29,844 bases of DNA, from positions 1 to 29,844 of the IMG/VR virus record IMGVR_UViG_3300032324_000591, one strand, 5' to 3'. Under the pieces are notes generated by a model. The model did no database searches and was not told where the DNA came from. It was given only the letters and a program-made list of their open reading frames with translations. This DNA is from a virus. Taxonomy: Duplodnaviria; Caudoviricetes. This document shows, one piece after another, positions 3,320 to 17,141 of the stretch. A program made the position numbers and the translations under genes. Position 1 is the first letter of the stretch. Every line of letters begins with the position of its first letter.

Positions 3320-4519
3320 ATGGCAGGCGAAGGTTTAATCTGGTCCGGCATTGGGCAAGGGATCGCTAACGCCGGTTCCACTATAGGCAGCTTTATGATG
3401 CGCTCTCAAGAGCGCGATGCTGAACGCGAGTACCGCGAAAGACAAGCCCAGGAAACACGCGATTACCGCGATAAGGTCGACCAGGAAAAGCGCGAGTACC
3501 GGGCTGAGCAAGACGCACTCTACAGGCGCACAGCCGCCCAGCAGACGGCTGGCGGCGGCGGCAAGGACCCCGGCATTCAACAAGCGGATTTAGAGCCTGG
3601 CGGTAAGTACGCTGGCATGGCTGCGGGCAGAGTGGCAGACATAACGTCAAGCATGACCACCGAGAACGATCTTGCCGATATTCGAAAGTACCGCAAAAGC
3701 GGCGAGATTGATGCCAATAAATACGGAAAGCCAATTGAAGTTGGCACAACGCTTGATGATACGTATGGCGAACAACCCGTAACGCAAATGCAAGTGCCCC
3801 CTGCACTTAAAGAAGAATTTACGTTAAAGGCCAAAGCCTTGTCAAGAATAGAAGAAGCCTATGCACTCAAAGGCAATTTCGATGACGTAAAAAAAGGCGA
3901 AAACACTGCTTTCAAAACTGGCGTTGGCCAAGGCGTTTTAGCTGGCACCACCAAAATGGGCATCGGCTCCGGCGCGGTTGCGGCCTCAGAAGGCACGCCG
4001 ATTATCAACGTCGAAGGCGGTGAGCTGTACAACCAGTACAGTGGGGAAAGCAAGACTACGCCCCTGGGCAAATCGCAGATTGCCGAGAACCAGGCCAAAG
4101 CTGGTGAAGCAAAACAAAAAGGTGATGCTGCTGAAACCAAATCCGAACGCCAAGAAAAAGATAAACGCGAAACCACAAAAGATTTGGAGCGCCAAGTAAA
4201 AAATGCAAAAGAGATTTTGTATGAAGGCTTGGGCGTCAGCAACACGGAAGCCCCAGCGGAGTTAAAACGCTTGCAAGATCGGGCTGCGGCTGGCGACGTC
4301 AAGGCCAAAGCCCGGTTGGATGCTTTGGCTCCTGCCATAGAAGATTTAGCTACAACGCGGGCCAAGCTAAAAGCATGGGAAGCAAAAGCCACCCCATCTG
4401 ATACCGGTGGCCGTGCGCCAACCGGCGGAATGCCCGAACCTAAATCGGCGGCAGAAGTTGCTAAATTAAAACCTGGAACCCGATTCAAAGCCCCGGATGG
4501 TTCTATCCGGGTTAGGTAA
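3320..4519 (+). CDS. Putative internal virion/ejection protein
   Basis: SD AAGGAG. Gly-rich hydrophobic N-terminus then a charged coiled coil. C-terminal motif AEVAKLKPGTRFKAPDGSIRVR is of the type seen in genes preceding giant phage proteins. Confidence 0.65.
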   Translation: MAGEGLIWSGIGQGIANAGSTIGSFMMRSQERDAEREYRERQAQETRDYRDKVDQEKREYRAEQDALYRRTAAQQTAGGGGKDPGIQQADLEPGGKYAGMAAGRVADITSSMTTENDLADIRKYRKSGEIDANKYGKPIEVGTTLDDTYGEQPVTQMQVPPALKEEFTLKAKALSRIEEAYALKGNFDDVKKGENTAFKTGVGQGVLAGTTKMGIGSGAVAASEGTPIINVEGGELYNQYSGESKTTPLGKSQIAENQAKAGEAKQKGDAAETKSERQEKDKRETTKDLERQVKNAKEILYEGLGVSNTEAPAELKRLQDRAAAGDVKAKARLDALAPAIEDLATTRAKLKAWEAKATPSDTGGRAPTGGMPEPKSAAEVAKLKPGTRFKAPDGSIRVR

Positions 4520-4524
4520 AAAAT

Positions 4525-7500
4525 ATGGCAAAAGAATGGTGGGAAACTTACGCTCCGGCTGACGAGTCGAAGGACGAGTGGTGGTCAAGCTATGCCGTCG
4601 AGTCTGAAGCGGCTAAGCCCCAAGGGCGACGCGACGTCACCCCGTTCAAGGTAGACATCCAGCAGCCGCGCGCGGCCCCCGTGCGCCAGGCCGCAGCCGC
4701 GCCTGAAGTTTCAACAGAGTACAGCCCAAGCGGTGATGACTTTGGCTCGGCCATCATGGCCGCTGCTGCGCCTGCTGCCCCTGTGCGGTCCAAGTCAGTC
4801 CTGGATAATTTACCGCCAGTTGATCGCACCAAAGAACCGGGCTTTATGCTTCGGCCCGAATTCGTGGACCAGGTGCGCAACAGCTTTGCCAGTATCCCGC
4901 CTGAAAAACGCCGCCAGGCTTTGATCGACGCTGCCGCTGGAACAGACGCCACCGCGCAAGCGGCCCAGCGCATCCTGTTTGACGTGCAAAAAGAAGACAA
5001 ATTCCTTCAAGCGGAAGAGGGTAGTCGGCAGGGCATGATTGACATCGTGCGCAAGGCACCGCGTGTTAAGCCAGAATTAAAGCTCGGCAACCAGCCTAAA
5101 CCGCCAGTCGTTTTTCCAGACGTCACCCCTACCGTCCTGGAGCGGGCCGACGCGTACAAAACCTCTGAAAGCGAACGCATCGCAAACCGGCTGCGCCAAG
5201 ACGAAGCGACACGCACCGTTGTTGGCGCGGAGACCAGCCTGGAAGCGTTGGCGGACCGTGCCGACAGAGAAAGCCGGGACTTTAGCGCTGAAGCATTTGC
5301 CAAAGAAAACCCATACCGCGCCGCCCTGGAATCTGGTGGCCGACAAATAATTTCAGGGTTAGCAAACTCCATTCCAACTATTGTGGATTTTGCTGCTCGG
5401 GTTATAGACGCTACCAAGACTGGTGTTGATACGACCGGAAACTTGACGATGTCTTTTGACACAGACACGTTCAATAATCAAAACGTCCGCGCTCCTACAT
5501 ACCAGTGGGCAGACCGGATGGCCATTACGGCCCGAAGCCTAATGCCAGAAGCTGGTCGCCAGAATATGGCTTCTGCTTTTTCTAAGGGCGAGTTTGGTTC
5601 TTGGCTTGGTTTGAACCTAACCGCTCAAGCACCACAAATGGCTACTAGTTTTGTAGCCGCTATTCTTCCAGCCGCTCGGCCATTTCTTCTTCCCGCAATG
5701 GGCGCGCAATCAGCAGGCCAATCTTTTGGTGAAGGCGACAGCTCTTTGGGCGCTTTGATCAAGGGCGGCGCTGAAATTGTTGGTGAAAGAATTACGCTTG
5801 GTGTGTTTGACCGCACCATGTCTTCGCTTTCCAAACTACCTTTGAGCTTGCAAGCTCCCACCATTCAATCAGTTGGCCGAGCTTTGGCAGCAACGGGCAA
5901 AGTGGTAACGGCCCAGGGCGTTGTCGGGGCTTTAGAAGAAACGACCACGAAGATTTTGCAAAACGGGGTAGACCGTTATCTTGAAGACAAAGATGTTGGC
6001 CTGCTTGATCAAACCGCTGACGCCGCTGTTCTTGGCGCTTTCATGGAAGGCCCGTTAGCCCTTGTCCAAGGACGGGCAGCGTTTAAGGGCGGCGCAAGTT
6101 CTTTTGCCGACGCCCTGGCCGGGGACGTAGCCGGTGCTCAATTTGACCCGGCAGCGTTCGACGCCTACGCCCGTCGTGCCCTGGACGTGCAGTCATACGA
6201 TGCCGCCCTCATCCGGCCATACCAAGCAGCCCGAGTCCAAGAGGACCAGACCGCTCTCCAAACCTCGACCACGGCAACCGACGCGGCCACGGCAGCCGAT
6301 AACCTATCCGGTTCGTTAAACGAGCTTCTAGTGCCCTCAACGGCTATCACGCCCCTACCCCTTGACCCAACCCTTGACATGGGCCAAATGGCCCCTTCTG
6401 TGGGCCGCGCTGAGCCAATTCTGGACCTGGGCATTCCGGCCCCAGTTAGCAGGACTATCGAACCGGCCCTGGACCTCAACGCCCCAGCCGCTGAAGTGCC
6501 GGGGATTAACCAGACAACCGAACAACAGTTTGGCTTGGACAAGCTGCGCATTAACGCGCCCAGGCCGCAAAGCATCCAGGGCACGCCGGTCGCTGACCTG
6601 ACAGACGATCAGCTCCAGGTAATCACTGGCGACGAGACCGTCGCGCCTATCTCTCGCCGCAGTGCAGCAATTGAGCTGACCGCACGCCAGGGGGAGCAGG
6701 CACCCGCGCCCACACCTGTGGCCGAGACCCGCGTAATGACGCCCGAAGAGCTGGGCGCAATGCCGATCCGCGACAGACGCGCATTGGCTAGTCAGTTTGA
6801 TCAGACGGAGAACGAAGATGGCACTATTACATTCACAGCCAAACCTGGAGCTGCGCCAAGTACCCAGATTGTTCCAACCCCCGGAACAGAACAAACTCTC
6901 GGAACAGCGCCAGTGCGGGATGTCGGTAATCAGCCAGTCCTTGACAACGAAACAGTACGAGCAGATGCGCAACGATCTCTGGACCGTTGGGCCGTCGACA
7001 ATGGCCAGGCCATCCCTGCAAAGTTAAACCCTGCACCTGACGCCGAAACCAGAGCTGTCGGCACCATAGCCAATTTGCTGGGCAGCCAGTTTGGTACACG
7101 CGTTATCGCGTTCCACGACACCAGCCCTGGTTCTGTCCAGGGTGTGGCCGTTGGCGGCACTGCCTTTGTCAACACAGCCAACGTGGTGACCAACGTCGGT
7201 CGCGTGTCTTTGCATGAGCTAAAGCACACGATTGAGCAGATTGCGTTTACCGAAAAACAGGCTGGCCTGACCGACACGTCAGCTCAGAAATTCACGGCCC
7301 AGATCGACAGCATCTTCGACGACATGACCGAAGAGGGTAAGCGCGCCTACGTCACCAACTTCCTGCATGCCGCAGAGCTGGCCGCTCTTGACTCCACGCC
7401 CGACATAAAAGAAAGCCGCATCCAAGAGTTACTGCAATCTCCGGTCTTGCGTTCAGAGATGACCGCTGACTTCATGGGCAACCGCGCCACAGATAAAGCG

Positions 7501-10500
7501 TTCTGGGCCGACGTGGCCAAGGCTGATCCGGGTGGGTTCAAAGGCTTTGTGCAAAAGTGGGTAAGCGTCATCGACAATTTGATGAGCACTTTGCGCGGTC
7601 AACCTAAACTGAAAACTGAGTCTGCTAAAGTTGACCAGTACGTGCATGACCTGGGCAAAGCCAAGATGGTGGCACGCGAAGCGCTGATTGCATACCGCCA
7701 AGGAACGCTTCAGCAATTTGAATCAGCACCCGCCGCCAGCTTGCGGCAAGGAGAAATCAATGCACCGACCATCGGAACCCGGGGAAGTGAAAACCTACCA
7801 GGACCAACAGCGCAGGATCGACCAGGCTTTAGCGAAGATGGGGGCGGTCCGACCCCAACCTACGGAACCGCAAGAGCAGGCGCAATCTCCGTTGTCGGAA
7901 GACACTACTCAACGACTCCCCGTCAAACGCTAAGTGGAGCCTACTATGGACAAGGACTCAAGGGGGCAGAACGTACTCGCCTGGACAGTAGCACTGATCC
8001 TCGACTTAAAAACCGCGTCTACTTCTATGTTGACCAAGGCGCAGGTATTCGCCCCGAATCCGGGGTCGGCGGGTACGCACACGAAGCCAAGCTGGACAAC
8101 ATCTATGACCCACAGACTCGACTGATCAAACCGCAGGCCGACGCAAACGCGTTCGAGTCAGCGGTCATCAATGCAGGGTTTGACGGGTACGTTGCACCGT
8201 TTGGCAACGGCCAATCAGCCGTGGTGCTGCTGGGCCAGAAACACAAGGCCGTGCCTGTCAGGCAGATCGGCCAGCCCCGAGCCGCAGCTTTGTCAGCCGA
8301 GGCCGCGCCTACCACCCTCAAGAAGGGCCTGCTGACACGCGAGGCCAGCCAGGTCGACACCGGCAACATCCCCGGTTCGCGCATGCGCATGGGCACCCTG
8401 GAGATACCAGCGGGCCAGGTTGAAGCGGCCAACACCGAGATGGGGCGCATCGGCAGCGAAATACGTTTTGCTAAAAGGCAAGCGGCCCCGGCTCGGGTTA
8501 TGTTTGAGGTCGCGCCTGACCCCAACAACCTTGATCTCAAAACCCGCTGGGACGCGGTGCCCTTTGAGCGCAAGATTGAAATCAGCCAGCGCGTTGCCGC
8601 GAAGATCATGCCCCAGGTTTTCAGATTGGCCGGGGTCCGGGCTAAGATGACCACGCAGTTGGGCGGCTACCTAGAAGACACAAGCCCGTCTTTTGCGGCC
8701 ATAGTCCCAAGCAGCGCATCGGCTCAGCAGCTCATGGACGTGGCCCGCGTCGGCGGCTTTGGCTTGGCCCAGGACAGCATGATGGTTCTGGACTCCAAGC
8801 CTTTTGAGGGGTCTTCCCCTACAGGCTTGATCACCATCACGTTGCCTGAGAACATGCAAGGCCAGGAAGACGTGCATTCAGTCTACCGGGCTGTGCGCAA
8901 AGTGTCGCCTGAAAACATCAGTGGCCACACAACGGTTGGCCAAGAAATGGTTTTGGCCGTTCCTTCTGATAGGATGGCCGACCTTACATCGAAAATTGCG
9001 GGAGTGCTAAACGCTCGGCCCGAAAACTTTAGCATCGGTTTTGCGGAAGGCCACATGGCTTTCCCAACCAAAGAGGAGTACGACTATGGTAGTGAAACAG
9101 GGGCAGTATCTGCCGAGCTTTTTGCAAAACGGACAGAAGCTAGTCGCATCCGCCAAGAAGCCAGCGCCGCAATCGAAGCCGAACTCGCAACCGACGAAAG
9201 CGCCGGTGGGCGCAAAATAGACACAGGCCGTTATCGTAGCGTCGCGGACGCCCTTAGCCTTTCCCAAGCGGAATACGACGCCACCGCGCTGCCCCTTATG
9301 CTGGGGGGAACTAAAGGTAAAACCTTCCGCGCCCCCAATGTTGGCGGCATCCCGGAAATTGTGCAGTGGTTGGACCAGCGCCGGGCTGACAGCGGGTTGC
9401 CCAAGTTAGACCTCAACAAACCGGAAGACCGCACCACCTTGGCTAAGCTGCTGGCGTCTGAGGCCGTGGCGGCAATCCGCAGCGCGGGCAACGCAGTCGA
9501 ATGGTACGACGAGACTGTCGCTAAAACGCTACAAATCATGGCGGTCAAGTATCCAGAGCTGGACACCGATCCAAACGCACGCAATGCCTTTTTGCTGGCC
9601 GTAGCCATATCGTCCCAGACGATGGACGTTGAGGCCAATTTAAAATACGCGTCCCAGCAGTACGAACAATTCCGCAACACCGGTCAATTCCCAGAAACCG
9701 GCACTGGTAAATCCGCCCCGGCGATGGCCAAGAATTTTGCTTTGGCCAACGACGTGCTGGCTGATATGGGGCCGGGCTTGTTGCGTCGGTTCCTGCAAAC
9801 AGAATTTACCAAGCGAGAGCTGGAGACCATAGGCTTCCCAATTGGCGGCGAGTCAATGGACGAAAAAATGCTTGGCTCTGCTATCTTTGGACCCAAGATT
9901 GGTTTTGGTTTTTACAGCAACCTTTCGGGCAACTTTGAGCCGATCACCATGGACATGTGGTTCATGCGCACCGTTGGTCGTTTGGCCGGAACGCTGCCTG
10001 CATTTGACCCGGTCCTGTTCCCCAAGCAAGTGGCCAAGCTGCGCGCTGCCCTGGCAGAAACCGGCCCAGCCGAACGTGGCGTCTACGCTGCCCAGTTTGA
10101 TCCGGCTGCCGTCCAGGCCGCGATGGAGACAGACGAAGGGGCCGTCGCCCTGGCCCGCCAGGTGAGCAGCCTGCATAACCGCCAATTCATCAAAGAGCGC
10201 GCTGCGTTTGACTCAGGCACCCGGATCAAAACCCCCTTGGTTGGCGCGGCTGGAGCCATACTAAAATCGGCTGACAAACCAACTGACGCACCATCCAGTG
10301 GGGGTGAGCGCCAACGCTTGCGTGACGTAACTCGCCAAATGGTGGCTATGGTTGAGCAGCAGACAGGTAAGCGCGTGCCGCCAGCGGCCTTGCAAGCGCT
10401 GATCTGGTATCCAGAGCAAGAGCTTTACAAGAAGCTGGGCGCTGGTCTTTATGTGACTAGCCAAGACTATGCGGGTGCGGCAAAATCACTACTTACGAAA

Positions 10501-10845
10501 GAAGGCTTTGATGGAAAACGAATCGACACAGCAGCCAAACCTGGACCAAGACCAGCACGACAAGTGGCTGGCAAGCCGGTCGCGGGAACAAATAAGCAGG
10601 CTGGCCAGCCGGGCGGGCCAACTGGCCCGATCCAAGGAGCAGAGCGGGAAACTTTCATCCAAAGCCAAACTCCCCTTGAAGACATCTTCGCCGGATTAGA
10701 GAAGCGCGGCCTGGCCAAGACACGCGCCGAGGCTGCATTCACTGCACGCCCGGACGGCGCGCAAATAAAATATGTCCAGGAAAATTTCAACGACATCTTG
10801 ATCCAGCTTGAGGATGCGGACAAGGTTAAGATCAATTGCAAATAA
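4525..10845 (+). CDS. Giant polyvalent virion/ejection protein 1 (zincin peptidase, ART-like, SAM-lyase-like, HhH-GPD-like domains)
   Basis: 2106-aa ORF. Duplicated N-terminal EWW..YA motif. HELKH...EMTAD at ~7213-7470; HYS..RVYFY..GFDGY at ~7890-8250; LGGY..VAR..QDSMMV at ~8500-8800; WY..GPKIG..TMDMWFMR..LQALIWY at ~9480-10470. Confidence 0.85.
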   Translation: MAKEWWETYAPADESKDEWWSSYAVESEAAKPQGRRDVTPFKVDIQQPRAAPVRQAAAAPEVSTEYSPSGDDFGSAIMAAAAPAAPVRSKSVLDNLPPVDRTKEPGFMLRPEFVDQVRNSFASIPPEKRRQALIDAAAGTDATAQAAQRILFDVQKEDKFLQAEEGSRQGMIDIVRKAPRVKPELKLGNQPKPPVVFPDVTPTVLERADAYKTSESERIANRLRQDEATRTVVGAETSLEALADRADRESRDFSAEAFAKENPYRAALESGGRQIISGLANSIPTIVDFAARVIDATKTGVDTTGNLTMSFDTDTFNNQNVRAPTYQWADRMAITARSLMPEAGRQNMASAFSKGEFGSWLGLNLTAQAPQMATSFVAAILPAARPFLLPAMGAQSAGQSFGEGDSSLGALIKGGAEIVGERITLGVFDRTMSSLSKLPLSLQAPTIQSVGRALAATGKVVTAQGVVGALEETTTKILQNGVDRYLEDKDVGLLDQTADAAVLGAFMEGPLALVQGRAAFKGGASSFADALAGDVAGAQFDPAAFDAYARRALDVQSYDAALIRPYQAARVQEDQTALQTSTTATDAATAADNLSGSLNELLVPSTAITPLPLDPTLDMGQMAPSVGRAEPILDLGIPAPVSRTIEPALDLNAPAAEVPGINQTTEQQFGLDKLRINAPRPQSIQGTPVADLTDDQLQVITGDETVAPISRRSAAIELTARQGEQAPAPTPVAETRVMTPEELGAMPIRDRRALASQFDQTENEDGTITFTAKPGAAPSTQIVPTPGTEQTLGTAPVRDVGNQPVLDNETVRADAQRSLDRWAVDNGQAIPAKLNPAPDAETRAVGTIANLLGSQFGTRVIAFHDTSPGSVQGVAVGGTAFVNTANVVTNVGRVSLHELKHTIEQIAFTEKQAGLTDTSAQKFTAQIDSIFDDMTEEGKRAYVTNFLHAAELAALDSTPDIKESRIQELLQSPVLRSEMTADFMGNRATDKAFWADVAKADPGGFKGFVQKWVSVIDNLMSTLRGQPKLKTESAKVDQYVHDLGKAKMVAREALIAYRQGTLQQFESAPAASLRQGEINAPTIGTRGSENLPGPTAQDRPGFSEDGGGPTPTYGTARAGAISVVGRHYSTTPRQTLSGAYYGQGLKGAERTRLDSSTDPRLKNRVYFYVDQGAGIRPESGVGGYAHEAKLDNIYDPQTRLIKPQADANAFESAVINAGFDGYVAPFGNGQSAVVLLGQKHKAVPVRQIGQPRAAALSAEAAPTTLKKGLLTREASQVDTGNIPGSRMRMGTLEIPAGQVEAANTEMGRIGSEIRFAKRQAAPARVMFEVAPDPNNLDLKTRWDAVPFERKIEISQRVAAKIMPQVFRLAGVRAKMTTQLGGYLEDTSPSFAAIVPSSASAQQLMDVARVGGFGLAQDSMMVLDSKPFEGSSPTGLITITLPENMQGQEDVHSVYRAVRKVSPENISGHTTVGQEMVLAVPSDRMADLTSKIAGVLNARPENFSIGFAEGHMAFPTKEEYDYGSETGAVSAELFAKRTEASRIRQEASAAIEAELATDESAGGRKIDTGRYRSVADALSLSQAEYDATALPLMLGGTKGKTFRAPNVGGIPEIVQWLDQRRADSGLPKLDLNKPEDRTTLAKLLASEAVAAIRSAGNAVEWYDETVAKTLQIMAVKYPELDTDPNARNAFLLAVAISSQTMDVEANLKYASQQYEQFRNTGQFPETGTGKSAPAMAKNFALANDVLADMGPGLLRRFLQTEFTKRELETIGFPIGGESMDEKMLGSAIFGPKIGFGFYSNLSGNFEPITMDMWFMRTVGRLAGTLPAFDPVLFPKQVAKLRAALAETGPAERGVYAAQFDPAAVQAAMETDEGAVALARQVSSLHNRQFIKERAAFDSGTRIKTPLVGAAGAILKSADKPTDAPSSGGERQRLRDVTRQMVAMVEQQTGKRVPPAALQALIWYPEQELYKKLGAGLYVTSQDYAGAAKSLLTKEGFDGKRIDTAAKPGPRPARQVAGKPVAGTNKQAGQPGGPTGPIQGAERETFIQSQTPLEDIFAGLEKRGLAKTRAEAAFTARPDGAQIKYVQENFNDILIQLEDADKVKINCK
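7760..7933 (+). CDS. Putative nested +1-frame small protein (57 aa) upstream of the ART-like domain
   Basis: AAGGAG at 7748-7753, 6 nt before ATG. Encodes the helix-like VKTYQDQQRRIDQALAKMG, while the host frame here is a G/P/R-rich linker. Confidence 0.5.
   Translation: MHRPSEPGEVKTYQDQQRRIDQALAKMGAVRPQPTEPQEQAQSPLSEDTTQRLPVKR
9086..9220 (+). CDS. Putative nested +1-frame small protein (44 aa) after the SAM-lyase-like region
   Basis: GAGGAG at 9073-9078, 7 nt before ATG. Translation MVVKQGQYLPSFLQNGQKLVASAKKPAPQSKPNSQPTKAPVGAK. Confidence 0.4.
   Translation: MVVKQGQYLPSFLQNGQKLVASAKKPAPQSKPNSQPTKAPVGAK
10511..10699 (+). CDS. Putative nested +1-frame small protein (62 aa) after the glycosylase-like domain
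   Basis: GAAGG 5 nt before ATG. Encodes DQDQHDKWLASRSREQISRLASRAGQLARSK, while the host frame is a low-complexity G/P/Q linker. Confidence 0.5.
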   Translation: MENESTQQPNLDQDQHDKWLASRSREQISRLASRAGQLARSKEQSGKLSSKAKLPLKTSSPD

Positions 10846-10856
10846 GGACCCAAGCC

Positions 10857-11348
10857 ATGCTACCCAAAATGATCATCTCCGCCGATTGCAAAAAGATGCT
10901 GGACGAAGCAATCCATTCCGAGTTGTACGCATCCAACCTGTACAAGCACATTGCCAATCAGCTCCAGCGAATCGGGTACTTTGGTGCAACCAAATTCTTT
11001 CTCAAAGAAAGCGCGGACGAGCTGGAGCATTACCAGCGCCACGTTGAATTCCAGAACGACGTAGGTACGGTGGCCAAGGTGCCCATGATTGAGGCGATGA
11101 ATGACACCATCGAGACCCTCAGCGACGCCATCGAGACTGGGTACGAAACCGAAATGGAGTTGTACAACAGCTACAAGGAGTGGTACGGTCGGGCCTCTGA
11201 CGATCCAGTGGTTCAACAATACCTTTTGCAATTCCTTGAAATTCAGCGCACCAGTGTCGGCGAGTACGGCGACCTGCTGGCGCGCATTGACCTTGTCGAC
11301 CAAGACAAGGCTGGCATGCTCCTGATCGACCAAGAACTAGGCGGCTAA
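10857..11348 (+). CDS. ftn: Ferritin (non-heme, Ftn-like)
   Basis: SD AAGGA before ATG 10857. ELYASNLY...GATKFF...ADELEH...YETE...Q ferroxidase pattern and a GMLLIDQEL terminal helix. Confidence 0.9.
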   Translation: MLPKMIISADCKKMLDEAIHSELYASNLYKHIANQLQRIGYFGATKFFLKESADELEHYQRHVEFQNDVGTVAKVPMIEAMNDTIETLSDAIETGYETEMELYNSYKEWYGRASDDPVVQQYLLQFLEIQRTSVGEYGDLLARIDLVDQDKAGMLLIDQELGG

Positions 11349-11351
11349 GCC

Positions 11352-14300
11352 ATGGCGAAAGATTGCACGTACAGGTTCACCGACCGTGACGGCAAAGAGC
11401 GAGTCATCCAGGGCCAAGTCGCGTTCAAAGCCTATCTGGTTAACGGCGGCTTGGAACACTTGCTGCCTAGCGCGCCTGTGGCGTTTAGCGGCAAACAGGA
11501 AAACCTTAACGAGCGCTTTCGCCAGCAAATATTCTCTGACTTTGACGCAGCGGTGCGTGAGTACAAAGCGCTGCCCGACACCAAGAACGGCAAGCTGTTA
11601 GACACCGACCAGGTGCGTGAGCTATCACCGGAATACCGCGCTGACCGAAGCCTGGCACCTCAAGTGCATGAAGCTGCCAGCGCCTTTACCCAACGAGCGT
11701 TTGAAGAGCGCATGGCAAACGCGCCAGATGGGGCCTTGGTAATCTTTATGGCGGGCGGTGGTGGGGCGGGTAAGTCCAGCGCCGAGCACTTGCTCAGCGA
11801 CGCTATGGAGCGTGCCAATACGATTTTGGATGGCACGTTGTCAAGCTACGACAAGGCGTCTCGAAATGTGCAGCTTGCGCTTGACAACAACCAGACCGTT
11901 CGCATAGCCTATGTGTATCGCGAACCACTCGATGCTTTGGCCAGCGAAAAAGGTGGCGTGCTGGAGAGGGCCATGAAGCGTGGCCGACCAGTCACTTTAG
12001 AGGCTTTGGTTAAGGGGCACGTCGGGTCCAGCGAAACGGTTCGCAAATTGCAACAGGCTTTTGGCGACAACCCCAATTTTAAAATCCAGGTTATCGACAA
12101 TTCGCGCGGGGCCGGGAACGCGGTCATGTCCACTTTGGAGGACGTGCCCGCAGTCCAGCTCGAAGGTTTAATGGAGAAATTTAAAAATGCAACAGACCAA
12201 GCACTCGCCGAAGGACGGATCAGCGAAACGATCCACCGGGCAACCACGACCCCCTATGACACCCGCCAAGCAAATGGAGGCGCGGGCCAGCGCCCAAGCG
12301 TTCGACCGCGCGGTGAGCGCGAAGTTCAAGGGCGGGCTGAGCCTGGCCAAGCAGGATACCCCGTAAACCGGGCAGCTCAAAAAAACCCCGAAGCCAGCCG
12401 GGTTGAGGGCACCAGCGCCGAACGGTTCAAACGGACCGAGCAACTCCAGCAGGCCGTGGGCGATCTGCAAGAAGGCAAGATCACTCGCAACGAATACGAC
12501 CGCATGGTTGACGAGTTGCGCCCCGTCTATCCCTACGAAAAAGTTCCGGCGGTCACGACCGTTGCCGACGCCCGTTACGCCCTGGCCACGGGCAAAGGCC
12601 AGAGTCCGGAGAAGGCGGCCAAGTACGGCCTGCCGTCCATGACCCTGAATACCGGCGACTGGGCGCAGCTCCGCCTGGACATTCCGTCTTACCAATTGCA
12701 CGACGCCTGGGTAGTCAGTGTGCACACGCCCAAGTCCACAAACCGCGAGGTCCAGGCTGCCTACGACGCTGGCACCGTGGTGGGCTACGAGTCCGTGGCC
12801 GCGCTCACTGACGTGACCTTTGGCATGAACCAGCGATCCGCAAGCAAAATCGCTATGGGCACGTCCAAGGGCACGATCGCCACCATGCTGGGCAAGTGGG
12901 CGCCCATCAGCAAAGAAGACGCCAAGGCTCGCGCCGACGCCGCGCTGAACGACCCGGCCTGGACCCAGGTTGGCATGGACCCGTTCCGCCACAGCTACTT
13001 CTACGACCGCGACAGCATGCGCCCGGTCCTCAGCGCAGATGAGGTGATCCAGATCGGCCCCCTGGTCCTGGCCAAGAACGTGAAGTTTGGCCAAGACACC
13101 GACATCACCGGCGCGCCGATCATGTTCAGCGCCAAGCAAGACTTGCCGGTGGACACCAAGCTGGAGCGTTGGGCTAAAACCATCTTTGACAAACTCGGCA
13201 GCGTGGCCGAATCAAAAATCTTGGCCGAGCGTTTGCCACATCCGTCGCTTTCCATGGGGCCGGGGGTTCCGTTGGGCGACCGCCAGATGGTGGTGCTTGA
13301 TGGCCATGCCCTGGACCATGCAGCCAAACACGTTGAAGACGGCATCACTGCCCGCATGATTGGCCAGCTTCCTGCTGCGCTCAAGGACCCACGGATGGTG
13401 GCGTTCCAGGGACCGGGCCAGGCTTTGGTGATGTTGCCTTTGCGGGCTGCCAACGGCGCCCCAATCGTGGTGGCATTGAAGAAGGAGGAGGTCAAGGGCG
13501 GGGGCACTACGCTGAAAGTCACGCGCTTTGCGACCACGTACCCGTTGGAAAATTCCGCGTCTTACATCGTGCGCGAAATGAGAAAAGGCAACCGAATTTG
13601 GTTGCCTGAAGAAGAGGTTTCACGGCTCCGTGATTTACTGGGAAAGCTCAATGCTACCCAACCCCGAGGCACTGGCCCCGGCGTCACCCAAACACTAGCG
13701 CTTCCTCTTGCGAGGGGTGGCAACCAAGCCGTGAAGGACTTCAGTGTACTCTCTGACGCCGCTCTTGCCAAGAAGCAAACCAACGAAAAAGGCTGGGAGC
13801 GTGAAACCGAGACGGTTTCTGTGCCAAATGATGCAGAAAAACAACTGCAAGGCATAGCGTTTGCCAAGCGCCAGCCGGTCGGCAAAGAGACCGAGGGCTG
13901 GCTGCTCAGCCGTGATGAGCTGGGCCGCTTCCGTTTCGGTGCCGGTGCCAAGGCATACCGTTACGCAGCGGACGTGGCCAACGCGGTCCTGGACGTGGTC
14001 GGTATGAAACCGGTCAGCCCAGAGCTGTCCCGTGCAATGCGCAAGATGCGCATGGAAGTCGACAAAGCACAGAACCTGACAGTCGAAGTTGCCAAGACCA
14101 TGAAGGACTTGCCCGAGCAAGAGCGCCAGATGATCAGCGATGTGATTGAAGGCGAACTCAAGCGCGGTGCCACGCCACCCAAGCGAGTGCTGGAGATCGC
14201 CGCGTCTATGCAGGACATTATGTCCGAGCAGTCGGCAGAGCTGGTCCGCCTGGGCATGCTATCCAAGGACGCCGCTGGCCGCTGGGACGGCAAGTACCTG

Positions 14301-16286
14301 CCGCGTTTCTACGAACAGAAACTGGGCGACGAAACCAAAGCTTGGATGAAAGCAGTCAAGGGATTGCTGGGACGCAAACAAACCATGCAAGGTATCAAGG
14401 GCAGCAGCCTCAAGGCGCGCGGCATGTTTGAGACTGTACCGGTCGCTGACCTGGCAGACTGGGAAGCCGAGGGCTGGGCAGTGCGAGACGCTACCTACGA
14501 TCCAGCGGTCGATACCGAGATCACAGTGTGGCGCGACTACACCAGGACGGAGCGCGACGACATGGGCGAGATTCGCGATGCCATGTTCCGCTTTGTCATG
14601 GGATACAACAAAAGCCAGCGCGACATTGCACTGGGCCGCTTGTATGAAAACCTGGCCGCGACCTACGCAAACAAGACAGAACAGCCGGGCTATGTTCAGG
14701 TGCCCGCGACCAACGTCGAAGACACCTTTGCTAAGCGCTACGGAAAGCTAGGCGGCAAGTACGTGCCCAGTGAAATCTTGGACCAGTTGGTTGCGTTTGA
14801 TAGCGACATGCAAAACGACCTGACCAAGATTTACCTCAAGGGCTTGTCGATGTGGAAAGAGGGCAAGACCGTACTCAACCCAGTGGCCCACGCAAACAAC
14901 GTGCTGTCGAACATCACGATGGCCCACTTTGCTGGCGTGTCTTACTGGGACGCGCACAAGTACATCGGCTCTATCAAGGACCTGGTCAAGGGCGACGCGA
15001 TGGTAGAAGAAGCCAGGGAAGCCGGTCTGTTTGGCGGCACGTTTAACCGTGCTGAGCTAACCGAAGCCATGCCCGAAGAGCTGCGCGTCTTGGCCCAGAT
15101 GGCCGAGAGCAAAAGCAAGCGCGCTGTCGAGATGGTCTGGAACGGCCTGTCTTTGTGGCTGCGCAAACCACTGGGCAAAGCATACAACGCAGAAGACGAA
15201 TTCTTCCGTTACGTGGTTTACCGTGATGCGCGCAACAACGGCCTAAGCGTAGACGCCTCAGTTGACTACGCACTCAAGTACATGTTCTCATACGACGATA
15301 TGCCTAAGGGCGCGCGTGTGATTCGTGACATGCCGGTCGGCTTGCCGTTCTTTTCCTATACGTACAAGATCGTGCCAGCCCTGGTCAATACAGCCCTTGA
15401 ACACCCTGTCCGCTATGCTGCCCCTGCCGTTGCGATTTACGTGGCAAATGCGGCCATGTACGCCATTGCTGCAAGCCTTGGCGGCGGGGAAGACGAAGAC
15501 TGGTGGACCATCATCCGTCGATACATGACCGACTCCGAATTCCGCCAGAGAACCAAGGACCTGGAAGAACAAGAGCGCAAGAACCTGCCCGAATGGATGA
15601 GGGGCGCAAGTCTGTCACTGGGCACAGAGAAGTCAATCCGCCTAGGCACGGACGACCTGACCAATTTGCCCGTGTTCCTTGATGTCAGCCGTATCTTCCC
15701 CGGTGGCGATCTGTTCGACGCGCACAATAACGCTGGCGGCATTCCCTTGCTTGCGCCGATCACACCCAACAGCCCGGTGCTTACAGTCGCGTCGGCCATG
15801 CTTTTCAACAAGGACACATTCCGTGGCCAGGACGTTGTCAAGAAAACGGACACCGACGCCGAGGCTGCGCAAAAGCGCGCGGCTTGGATGTGGAAACAAA
15901 TGACACCGGCCATCGCCGTGGGCAACACGCACTTTGAGCGGGCCATGAATGTGATCGCAAATGTAACCGGCCAGTCAGTCAACGTGGGCCTGGCCGAGTA
16001 CACGGGTATTGGCAAGGACGGCCTGCCAATCACACCGGGCTACGCGGCCTTGCAAACTGTCGGCATCAAGGCCAGGCCAATCGACCTGGACACTTCAGAA
16101 AAGATTCAGAAGGCGCAAACGAAAGCCCTTATCCGGGAATTGGAAGCGCAGATCAAACAGTCTCAACGCTTGGAAAACAAAGGTGCCATCAGCCCCACAA
16201 CAGGTGAGGCAGAGCGCGAAAAGCTGCGCGAGAAAAAGCAGTTCATTCGTCAAGGTTTGACCGTCGAGGGCGAGGAGAAGGACTAA
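11352..16286 (+). CDS. Giant polyvalent virion/ejection protein 2 (zeta-type P-loop kinase, unknown domain, MuF-C/PBECR-like RNase, LPD38-like C-terminus)
   Basis: 1644-aa ORF. FMAGGGGAGKSS..ILDGTL..RGRPV..VIDNS; RLDIPSY..QVGMDPFRHSYFYD; KH..QLPAALKDPRMV..GAPIVVAL..ATTYP; C-terminal KTVLNP..EDEFFR..PFFSY..LPEWM..NKDTFRG helical region. Confidence 0.85.
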   Translation: MAKDCTYRFTDRDGKERVIQGQVAFKAYLVNGGLEHLLPSAPVAFSGKQENLNERFRQQIFSDFDAAVREYKALPDTKNGKLLDTDQVRELSPEYRADRSLAPQVHEAASAFTQRAFEERMANAPDGALVIFMAGGGGAGKSSAEHLLSDAMERANTILDGTLSSYDKASRNVQLALDNNQTVRIAYVYREPLDALASEKGGVLERAMKRGRPVTLEALVKGHVGSSETVRKLQQAFGDNPNFKIQVIDNSRGAGNAVMSTLEDVPAVQLEGLMEKFKNATDQALAEGRISETIHRATTTPYDTRQANGGAGQRPSVRPRGEREVQGRAEPGQAGYPVNRAAQKNPEASRVEGTSAERFKRTEQLQQAVGDLQEGKITRNEYDRMVDELRPVYPYEKVPAVTTVADARYALATGKGQSPEKAAKYGLPSMTLNTGDWAQLRLDIPSYQLHDAWVVSVHTPKSTNREVQAAYDAGTVVGYESVAALTDVTFGMNQRSASKIAMGTSKGTIATMLGKWAPISKEDAKARADAALNDPAWTQVGMDPFRHSYFYDRDSMRPVLSADEVIQIGPLVLAKNVKFGQDTDITGAPIMFSAKQDLPVDTKLERWAKTIFDKLGSVAESKILAERLPHPSLSMGPGVPLGDRQMVVLDGHALDHAAKHVEDGITARMIGQLPAALKDPRMVAFQGPGQALVMLPLRAANGAPIVVALKKEEVKGGGTTLKVTRFATTYPLENSASYIVREMRKGNRIWLPEEEVSRLRDLLGKLNATQPRGTGPGVTQTLALPLARGGNQAVKDFSVLSDAALAKKQTNEKGWERETETVSVPNDAEKQLQGIAFAKRQPVGKETEGWLLSRDELGRFRFGAGAKAYRYAADVANAVLDVVGMKPVSPELSRAMRKMRMEVDKAQNLTVEVAKTMKDLPEQERQMISDVIEGELKRGATPPKRVLEIAASMQDIMSEQSAELVRLGMLSKDAAGRWDGKYLPRFYEQKLGDETKAWMKAVKGLLGRKQTMQGIKGSSLKARGMFETVPVADLADWEAEGWAVRDATYDPAVDTEITVWRDYTRTERDDMGEIRDAMFRFVMGYNKSQRDIALGRLYENLAATYANKTEQPGYVQVPATNVEDTFAKRYGKLGGKYVPSEILDQLVAFDSDMQNDLTKIYLKGLSMWKEGKTVLNPVAHANNVLSNITMAHFAGVSYWDAHKYIGSIKDLVKGDAMVEEAREAGLFGGTFNRAELTEAMPEELRVLAQMAESKSKRAVEMVWNGLSLWLRKPLGKAYNAEDEFFRYVVYRDARNNGLSVDASVDYALKYMFSYDDMPKGARVIRDMPVGLPFFSYTYKIVPALVNTALEHPVRYAAPAVAIYVANAAMYAIAASLGGGEDEDWWTIIRRYMTDSEFRQRTKDLEEQERKNLPEWMRGASLSLGTEKSIRLGTDDLTNLPVFLDVSRIFPGGDLFDAHNNAGGIPLLAPITPNSPVLTVASAMLFNKDTFRGQDVVKKTDTDAEAAQKRAAWMWKQMTPAIAVGNTHFERAMNVIANVTGQSVNVGLAEYTGIGKDGLPITPGYAALQTVGIKARPIDLDTSEKIQKAQTKALIRELEAQIKQSQRLENKGAISPTTGEAEREKLREKKQFIRQGLTVEGEEKD
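12187..12366 (+). CDS. Putative nested +1-frame small protein (59 aa) after the zeta-type kinase; candidate antitoxin
   Basis: GGAG plus an A-rich 10-nt spacer before ATG. Translation MQQTKHSPKDGSAKRSTGQPRPPMTPAKQMEARASAQAFDRAVSAKFKGGLSLAKQDTP. Not in the ORF track. Confidence 0.5.
   Translation: MQQTKHSPKDGSAKRSTGQPRPPMTPAKQMEARASAQAFDRAVSAKFKGGLSLAKQDTP
13581..13607 (-). terminator. Intrinsic terminator of the antisense RNA
   Basis: Minus strand AGGCAACC-AAATTC-GGTTGCCT followed by TTTCT; the U-tract is short. Confidence 0.55.
13581..13736 (-). ncRNA. Putative structured antisense small RNA (~155 nt) nested behind the PBECR-like domain
   Basis: Bounded by a promoter and a terminator. 9-bp long-range stem TTCACGGCT/AGCCGTGAA, CCTC-GCAA-GAGG tetraloop hairpin, and two further hairpins. 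Confidence 0.6.
13743..13771 (-). promoter_or_regulatory. Internal antisense sigma70-type promoter
   Basis: Minus strand TTGGCA (13771-13766), 17-bp spacer, TACACT (13748-13743). Confidence 0.65.
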
Positions 16287-16512
16287 CCGGGGGCGGGCAG
16301 TTTTCCGGGATCGGCACAGCCACCCACACGGCTGCGTACTGGCCCCTATTGGGTCCCACCCAGCGGTCGATGTAGCAGTCGGCCATCTTCGGCAGCGCGC
16401 GCCTAACGCTGTCCTCACCCAGGCCAGTGCGATCCGCTAGGTCGGGCACGGTAAGTCCGTCCGGGTTACGCAACAGGACGGCGCGGATCGTGGGGTGTTG
16501 TGATGTGGTCAT
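16243..16512 (-). CDS. Small winged-HTH-like phage protein
   Basis: IRAVLLRNPDGLTVPDLADRTGLGEDSVRRALPKM HTH pattern; ATGA-coupled to the upstream gene. Confidence 0.7.
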   Translation of the reverse strand: MTTSQHPTIRAVLLRNPDGLTVPDLADRTGLGEDSVRRALPKMADCYIDRWVGPNRGQYAAVWVAVPIPENCPPPVSPSPRPRRSNLDE

Positions 16513-17141
16513 TCGTCCTTACCTTGAATGCTATAAAACCAATCGTCGCCCGCGCTCCACTTGCGCGTGCCATCCACCGACCATAGATGTTGCGCTGCCT
16601 GGAAGTCGGGAAACTTCGTTTCAGAAGGAACCAGGCTTTGGTCATACCACAGGCACCGGTTGTTTGGCTGGCAGGCAAACTGCCCGTTCTCAAGGCGTAT
16701 GAAATTAAACGACTTGTGCTCTTCGGCTTGCTCGGTAAAACCCGTGTCCAGGTCTTGGCCGTCAGCGCAAAAATCCACGGTGAATAAGTAGTTGCCGTAA
16801 TACCATTGCTTGTCTTTGCCTAGAAACTTCACGCCCAGGTTGCGCAAAGCAATCTTCTCAACGACCGTAAACCGGTAGCCCATGCAGTCCCATAGCTGCA
16901 AGAAGTCGATGGGCAAATCACCGTGGTCTTCTTTCCAGACGTATGCGTGGATGGGCAGCTTGTCGTACAGCGCGCCGTAAGCTGGCAGCAACGACTCAAT
17001 CCTAAACACCTGGCCACGAAGACCTTTTATGCTGACCCAAACCGCAGGCTCTAGTTCGCCGTGGCCCTTGGTGAAGTTGTACAAAAACTCACGCCTTACA
17101 AAACACTTAATCGGGGGCAGTGATGCCACTAGATAGCTCAT
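16509..17141 (-). CDS. Conserved uncharacterised aquatic phage protein
   Basis: ATG 17141 is ATGA-coupled with SD AGGAG. Motifs GALYDKLPIHA, LQLWDC, YLFTVD, EHKSFNFIRLENGQFACQPNNR. Confidence 0.8.
   Translation of the reverse strand: MSYLVASLPPIKCFVRREFLYNFTKGHGELEPAVWVSIKGLRGQVFRIESLLPAYGALYDKLPIHAYVWKEDHGDLPIDFLQLWDCMGYRFTVVEKIALRNLGVKFLGKDKQWYYGNYLFTVDFCADGQDLDTGFTEQAEEHKSFNFIRLENGQFACQPNNRCLWYDQSLVPSETKFPDFQAAQHLWSVDGTRKWSAGDDWFYSIQGKDE

Follow-up and report, generated by a model that had tools for sequence, protein, structure and literature searches.

Four conserved small genes nested in the +1 frame at domain boundaries of two giant phage genes, and their possible role as domain-specific antidotes

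Are the small open reading frames (ORFs) that lie in the +1 frame of two giant phage genes real genes and, if so, what could they do for the proteins that surround them? The question is raised by the stretch of DNA analyzed here, the whole 29,844 nucleotides of which we call the window (Caudoviricetes; IMG/VR record IMGVR_UViG_3300032324_000591, positions 1 to 29,844). An initial annotation had proposed that four small ORFs, each preceded by a Shine–Dalgarno sequence (SD), are overprinted on inter-domain linkers of these giants. The genes concerned are as follows.

4525..10845, + strand: giant gene G1, 2106 amino acids (aa), a multi-domain polyvalent-type protein; host frame of ORF1–3
7760..7933, + strand: ORF1, 57 aa, +1 frame of G1; SD AAGGAG at 7748–7753, spacing 6
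9086..9220, + strand: ORF2, 44 aa, +1 frame of G1; SD GAGGAG at 9073–9078, spacing 7
10511..10699, + strand: ORF3, 62 aa, +1 frame of G1; SD GAAGG at 10501–10505, spacing 5
11352..16286, + strand: giant gene G2, 1644 aa; host frame of ORF4
12187..12366, + strand: ORF4, 59 aa, +1 frame of G2; SD GGAG at 12173–12176, spacing 10

All four ORFs are present as the initial annotation had described them, led by an SD and in the +1 phase of their hosts. Its observation that the host frame turns rich in Gly, Arg and Pro beneath three of them also holds: the combined fraction of these residues is 0.43 under ORF1, 0.41 under ORF3 and 0.45 under ORF4, compared with gene-wide values of 0.21 and 0.19 in the host giants, and under ORF2 it is 0.18, not enriched, again as annotated. 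None of the four nested peptides has a match in Pfam or PHROG. Six SD- and ATG-led +1 ORFs of at least 40 aa occur in the window (ORF1–4 and those beginning at 6818 and 7946); 300 synonymous-codon shuffles yielded 1.39 ± 1.17 such ORFs, and none reached six. Each single ORF site recurs in 26–50 of the 300 shuffles (9–17%) and the shuffles themselves prefer +1 over +2 by about 8:1 (1.39 versus 0.17), so that the window alone is only suggestive. Because shuffled genes have the same preference, the shared +1 phase is no evidence by itself, and we dropped it from the argument. The ORF at 7946–8125, inside domain B, was rejected on its ordinary third-position pattern and serves as a negative control.

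The case for the four ORFs is carried by their relatives. Homologous loci were gathered separately for each of the domains that neighbour the ORFs, and the domains of interest are listed here.

7012..7722, + strand: domain A, with an HExxH motif (HELKH/HEFHH conserved in the alignment); zincin-peptidase-like by motif only
7849..8280, + strand: domain B, ART-fold-like, with the pattern H-[YF]-S ... YFY ... E
8497..9084, + strand: domain C, a tandem ferredoxin-like fold; S-adenosylmethionine (SAM)-lyase-like, as a lead
9334..10512, + strand: domain D, a helix-hairpin-helix (HhH) DNA-glycosylase-superfamily fold, DUF7178-related
11502..12245, + strand: zeta-toxin-type P-loop kinase, with the motif GGGGAGKS; ng-zeta1 subclass

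An ORF was counted where an SD, an ATG or GTG start and a +1 frame open for at least 35 codons occurred at the expected place. For domain D, 104 loci were anchored and reduced to 64 representatives at <90% identity, with the viral scan covering the best 80 of 582 matches; for the zeta kinase, 57 of 66 loci were anchored, giving 34 representatives at <85% identity. The ORF4 position is occupied in 34/34 zeta representatives (control intervals 3/33, 5/34 and 1/34), the ORF3 position in 53 of the 64 domain-D representatives (1–5/64 in eight control intervals) and the ORF2 position in 33 of 36 domain-C homologues, whose identity falls as low as 24% (controls 0 and 0). At the ORF1 position, an SD-led +1 ORF is found in 30/30 distinct, mostly close, domain-B loci. 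Control intervals overall lie at 0–15%. The sequences are related and the counts are not independent events, and the pattern holds down to 24–35% domain identity. Loss of the SD, the ATG or the open +1 frame in homologous linkers, together with a lack of translation, had been named by the initial annotation as the mark of a false call; instead, these signals are kept in relatives of all four.

The host codon that makes the ATG is one of Asp, Asn, Tyr or His. It is the sole such column fixed for T: one of 27 in domain D (51/51), one of 20 in the zeta kinase (26/26) and one of 15 in domain C (12/12), with a mean elsewhere of 0.26–0.29. Six domain-D relatives carry AGT-G at the ORF3 start, which makes a GTG. 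The ORF1 start position shifts in the alignment, so there is no clear column for it. Selection was measured by pairwise ratios of nonsynonymous to synonymous differences (pN/pS) from 25, 14, 32 and 9 sequences for ORF1–4, respectively. In the ORF1 core (7789–7848), pN/pS is 0.36–0.40 in the +1 frame versus 1.37–2.49 in the host frame; the corresponding values are 0.12 versus 2.76 for the ORF2 core, 0.14–0.26 versus 1.95–2.89 for ORF3 and 0.47–0.68 versus 0.94–2.14 for ORF4. Purifying selection therefore flips to the +1 frame in every ORF core, which answers the call of the initial annotation for a frame-specific test. A scan in segments of 15 codons along both giants found eight in which first-position diversity exceeds third-position diversity; seven fall in ORF1, ORF3 and ORF4, and the eighth is a saturated segment with four sequences. 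ORF2 is unflagged in this whole-gene scan, which mixes in loci without domain C, and the region 13150–13870 had too few homologues.

Judged from these sequence comparisons, all four +1 ORFs are conserved small genes with a link, in each case, to a single adjacent enzyme domain, and they are almost certainly genuine, translated genes. The proposal of real small genes at domain boundaries is thus upheld by conserved start signals and +1 selection in homologues. Their placement on linkers needs qualification: the ORFs do sit at domain boundaries and they also extend beyond the linkers into the domains. The first ~20 codons of ORF4 overlap the end of the zeta domain, the last ~28 codons of ORF1 overlap the start of domain B and the 3′ half of ORF2 overlaps a stretch conserved in the host frame, with +1 selection limited to a core of each ORF.

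Each domain and its small gene can be followed through rearrangements of the giants, and for ORF2, ORF3 and ORF4 the two move as a unit whose fixed placement holds through changes of both flanks. Hidden Markov models (HMMs) of the peptides have no significant match away from the expected position among the fetched loci. ORF4 follows the zeta kinase in G2-type, domain-D-upstream and stand-alone contexts. The kinase is recognized by PF06414 (E = 4e-17; 62.7 bits against a cut-off of 22.3), and its alignment profile finds the Zeta_1 toxin chain 6eph_B (E = 9.5e-17 over profile positions 15–242) as the nearest solved relative. In seven of the 34 representatives the zeta gene ends within the small ORF, 4–26 codons after its start, so that the two form an ordinary operon of overlapping genes. 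An HMM of the operon peptides recovers nested ones such as that of locus L257 (E = 6e-4) and the window subfamily weakly. In the zeta tree, the seven stand-alone operons lie in one clade within an open fork, together with the long-branch locus L263; the tree does not establish whether the stand-alone or the nested state is older. In L263 (MW202577.1), the zeta domain, annotated 'thymidylate kinase', ends a large protein, and an unannotated +1 ATG ORF is visible by eye over the last zeta codons (~3678–3800).

ORF3 follows domain D regardless of what lies downstream, including in short genes that end within or soon after ORF3 (L111, L112 and L096). Its core reads QQPNLDQDQHDKWL...EQI.RLA, and its HMM recovers loci outside the training set, directly after domain D. 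Among the 11 domain-D representatives without a counted ORF, an HMM finds an ORF3-like peptide in five (E = 1e-6 to 0.5), the small ORF or tail is arranged differently in three, a TTG-led ORF is possible in one and nothing is visible in the remaining two (L102 and L110). The domain model is confident (predicted local distance difference test score, pLDDT, 92.8), and HhH-superfamily or related folds fill the first 22 VIA rows, the best being 3n0u (Z 11.6, root-mean-square deviation (rmsd) 4.0, 198 aligned); Foldseek found nothing at E ≤ 0.001. DUF7178 is found in 4/64 domain-D members, with ESM Atlas values of 0.95–0.97. The invariant residues D207, W209, R216, Q354 and W358 suggest a putative active site. 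Longer ORF3-type peptides share a C-terminal extension, ..HPGLTRE.A.E.A..FGF, with a weak match to phrog_11719 (E = 0.03); carriers are L100:4169-4396, L103:4097-4345, L109, L116, L060, L062, L070 and L262:5184-5399. After distant domain-D homologues, a W.EDPDEPD peptide takes one of three forms: a separate gene coupled through ATGA, the N-terminal part of the following gene, or an in-frame fusion to D (L038:2177-2386, L040:4101-5600 and L041:4200-4323). Kinship between ORF3 and the separate gene after D (L038/L040) or the in-frame tail (L041/P0037) is seen by eye only; a bridging HMM missed these peptides.

ORF2 had been judged the weakest of the four, and this judgement fails: its core has a +1 pN/pS of 0.12, its ATG is kept in 14/14 close relatives and an SD-led ORF follows domain C in 33/36 homologues. 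The three exceptions have the peptide and lack an SD by the rule used. The core motif, PSFLQNGQKL, is present in 36/36 domain-D locus records with domain C directly upstream and in 0/120 without it (duplicates included), and an SD-led ORF starts at the equivalent place after C also in loci where C comes after D or stands ahead of B. Domain C has no Pfam or PDB sequence match. ESM Atlas relates it at 0.89 to clusters of PF23780, and SAM-lyase-type structures are among its VIA rows (6zm9, Z 7.4; 9gab, Z 7.2; 7ock_L, Z 7.1), with unrelated ferredoxin folds scoring higher (Z 10.3). We treat the modelled similarity to SAM lyases (PF23780) as a lead.

ORF1 lies between two candidate partners. It follows domain A in 33/33 loci when domain B comes next and in 0/7 when it does not, a pattern that points to B as its partner; the conserved core reads EVKTYQ..Q..ID..L.KMGAVR. 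The model of domain B has a pLDDT mostly above 88, the H and Y motifs are conserved in the alignment and the sole structural row listed is the MbcT toxin (6fkg_B, Z 7.1, rmsd 3.7, 119 aligned). Domains A–C have no Pfam or PHROG match, Foldseek of B and C gave no useful match and PDB sequence searches for domains D, B and C were empty or spurious. For domain A, we note that MPTase is described in PMC5512222 as the commonest domain of polyvalent proteins. A possible fifth nested +1 ORF lies just upstream of domain A (6818–7027, GGAG, 69 aa). Its +1 frame is stop-free over 35 codons in 25/25 relatives, an SD and start are present in only 15/36 and pN/pS over the first 30 codons is 0.6–1.0 in +1 versus 0.7–1.2 in the host frame. 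Where domain C directly precedes B (L185:1322-1582, L187:1190-1534 and L194:1187-1450), the nested ORF has 66–115 aa and looks by eye like a C-partner joined to another helical peptide, which takes the position of ORF1.

We propose that the nested peptides are domain-specific inhibitors, that is, antitoxin or immunity proteins, and put the probability of this reading at roughly 0.55; that they are cognate partners of the neighbouring domains, whatever the sign of their action, seems probable. One-to-one linkage to a toxin-type enzyme, quick divergence and an overlapping downstream gene in the stand-alone form make up a toxin–immunity pattern of the kind known from MuF toxins and ng-zeta1, and the one-to-one linkage with four different toxin-type domains may be best explained by a hidden immunity layer. 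In such a system, the giants would be virion cargo that is produced late in the infection and reaches the next host by ejection. While they are made, the producing cell could be harmed by the zeta kinase through cell-wall precursors, by the glycosylase-fold domain through DNA, by the SAM-lyase-like domain through SAM and by the ART-fold domain through NAD+ or proteins. The peptides would be translated from their own SDs on the giant mRNA, bind the neighbouring domains and hold them inactive until packaging, and would then be left behind or lost, so that the effectors act only after ejection. On the + strand, no sigma-70-like promoter was found within 4300–16600; with no internal promoter of this kind, the giant mRNA is probably also the message for the peptides.

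A domain and its peptide may further constitute a mobile cassette, in which fusion into a polyprotein would make the giant frame read through the small gene and produce a linker rich in Gly, Arg and Pro. The overlap described in the initial annotation as overprinting on linkers is real, and its direction may be backwards: the host frame drifts under the cores (pN/pS ~1–3), and stand-alone zeta operons exist. Together, an unconstrained host frame and the stand-alone operons suggest that the linker is the read-through of the small gene and not the reverse. We infer this direction, as the zeta tree leaves the order of events unfixed. A wider proposal, to which we give slightly less than even odds, is that polyvalent proteins are chains of effector–antidote cassettes, each toxic domain having a +1 inhibitor gene of 45–90 aa at its edge, and that their 'disordered G/R/P linkers' are read-through shadows.

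Several observations weigh against inhibition by cognate peptides. Genetic linkage fits an activator or a chaperone equally well, and nesting as such does not imply inhibition, since other giants nest a member of phrog_2423, an unrelated general phage family. The pairing of ORF1 with domain B is less firmly indicated than the others, because five of 15 B loci that lack A have an intact B motif and no upstream +1 SD-led ORF and the ORFs of the remaining 10 give no match to the ORF1 HMM (best E = 8). Two of the domain-D loci, L102 and L110, retain the invariant motifs and have no visible partner. The structural matches by which domains B and C are identified reach only Z ~7. For ORF2, an HMM of peptides after distant domain-C homologues does not recover the window peptide, so the position after C is shared and peptide homology is not shown. 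For ORF4, the alignment profile finds no epsilon chain or solved antitoxin in the PDB up to E = 10, and part of the similarity among ORF4 peptides stems from the overlapped zeta residues.

Two alternatives accept the small genes and dispute what they do. The peptides could be cognate non-inhibitors, such as folding chaperones, activating subunits or packaging and ejection adaptors. Linkage and selection reveal a partnership and not its sign, and the in-frame domain-D-associated tail in L041 and P0037 would suit a structural element; the kinship of the L041 tail with ORF3 is unsupported by HMM, however, every firmly linked neighbour has the fold of a toxin-type enzyme, domain A by itself is not directly followed by an ORF (0/7) and the nearest solved zeta relative has a small extended antitoxin. 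We consider this explanation unlikely. It is improbable that the small genes are independent phage genes captured by read-through and hitch-hiking without acting on the domain. The nested phrog_2423 member in L060, the many other nested families and the absence of a partner at some B and D loci would fit such capture; against it stand a position fixed down to 24–35% domain identity through changes of both flanks, and peptides with no significant HMM match off their expected position among the fetched loci.

The remaining alternatives concern translation itself. Internal initiation might matter for ribosome traffic, mRNA stability or stoichiometry and the peptide not at all, as could be argued from start signals that are better conserved than most residues (M1 is the sole invariant residue in one alignment, and another has none). 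The +1 pN/pS of 0.12–0.40 in the ORF1–3 cores and the family-specific hydrophobic patterns indicate amino-acid selection instead, and we regard a peptide-independent role as quite improbable. Shifting into the +1 frame can be promoted by an SD ahead of the shift site, as in RF2, and ORF2–4 start at the C-terminal end of a domain, so programmed +1 frameshifts could release shorter effectors with alternative tails. ATG and GTG interchange at the domain-D-locus start (46 ATG, 6 GTG), however, with SD spacings mostly of 5–11, as for initiation, and a +1 stop lies within five codons upstream in 21/34 zeta and 22/52 domain-D loci, directly adjacent in six zeta loci. The start-codon interchange and these close stops indicate initiation over frameshifting, and a shift at ORF4 would remove the conserved end of the zeta domain; frameshifting is thus very unlikely. 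The ORFs might finally be by-products of amino-acid motifs that the host frame of a GC-rich gene encodes (K-E-G, N-A, D-G). Single sites do arise in 9–17% of synonymous shuffles and the ORF at 7946 is such a by-product, but the codon-level tests, the homologue counts and the stand-alone operon forms contradict this origin for ORF1–4, and we give it hardly any weight.

Comparison with known systems places the nested inhibitors proposed here between several precedents. Polyvalent proteins, too, are phage giants that combine HExxH peptidase, ART, zeta-like kinase and MuF-associated domains, and are proposed to be delivered together with phage DNA (Iyer et al. 2017, PMC5512222). In a term search of the main text of that paper, 'linker' does not occur and 'reading frame' occurs once, in an unrelated sense; among 12 of the 14 matching passages, none deals with inhibitor genes of a nested or cognate kind. 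The literature covered, excluding supplements and subscription journals, likewise contains no report of nested partner genes in polyvalent proteins. In the ng-epsilon1/ng-zeta1 pair, the antitoxin lies bound across the ATP site of the toxin in the form of an extended peptide (PMC5923241; PDB 6eph/6epg); the zeta subclass is the same by profile and the antitoxin is a small, bicistronic, extended chain, whereas ORF4 is unlike epsilon in sequence and the partner here comes downstream with an overlap and in most cases lies entirely within a fused host gene. MuF virion toxins resemble the present case in having a phage-head-associated toxin domain and a fast-evolving cognate partner just downstream (PMC12226406); there, a single C-terminal toxin is followed by separate cognate immunity genes, whereas here several internal domains have +1 partners of 44–62 aa. 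In Rpn (PMC10327210), the antitoxin is made from an internal start within the toxin gene, but RpnS is the toxin's own C-terminal domain, in the same frame, with an internal promoter and in a host defence system. Lambda Rz1 in Rz and Synechocystis slr0489 L/S (10.64898/2025.12.20.695498) are examples of a small gene inside a larger one, in another frame, with joint action, and Slr0489S appears to offset Slr0489L (10.64898/2025.12.20.695498); these are single membrane-protein pairs, neither serial nor tied to exchangeable enzyme domains.

Nested genes of this type are missed by current annotation. In the cultured Limnohabitans phage DC33 (PQ492659.1), for example, gp45 (3126 aa) is a single coding sequence in GenBank and contains unannotated SD-led +1 ORFs directly after domain D and directly before domain B. 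The long ORFs of the fetched loci, 837 kb counted with redundancy, contain 160 distinct +1 and six +2 nested SD-led ORFs, many of them in recurring families. If the peptides are antitoxins, they would address how a cell builds virion-delivered multi-effector proteins without self-poisoning, and a nested gene at a domain edge would flag toxic domains among those of unassigned role. The domains would also become clonable and testable: the inhibitor would come with any construct that retains the nested gene, and a construct without that gene may be lethal. If polyvalent proteins prove to be cassette chains, hidden serial immunity would allow many enzymes that are toxic to the host to be joined in a single ejected protein of the phage, and would be a source, so far unannotated, from which small inhibitors could be drawn against zeta kinases, HhH glycosylases, SAM lyases and ART-fold enzymes.

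The surroundings of the two giants are those of a phage genome, in which a + strand module of likely virion genes is followed by genes for DNA polymerase, single-stranded DNA-binding protein, nuclease, primase and helicase. Taken as a whole protein, G1 has no Pfam or PHROG match. Its upstream neighbours match the internal virion protein family phrog_308 (E = 2e-4) and T7_gp14 (E = 0.013, below the cut-off); from these weak matches and from what the polyvalent-protein literature describes (PMC5512222), we infer that G1 is likely to be virion cargo. G2 contains the zeta kinase, L5 gp82-like and MuF_C-like regions and a large C-terminal region. Both giants have the multi-domain, variable architecture and conflict-type domains by which polyvalent-type proteins are recognized, and domain order varies among relatives. 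Contigs assembled from two RNA-library runs cover parts of the region (shares 0.29 and 0.06) and demonstrate neither transcription nor translation. One further gene separates the giants and lies outside the nested system.

10857..11348, + strand: ferritin-like gene between G1 and G2, PF00210, E = 1e-16

Among the other giants, a nested +1 gene of phrog_2423 lies upstream of domain D in two loci (L060:2750-2923, E = 2.8e-8, and L070:2747-2920), and more recurring nested SD-led families are found at other domain boundaries (L094:1406-1609, L140:2327-2530, L056:662-799 and L042:4772-5119).

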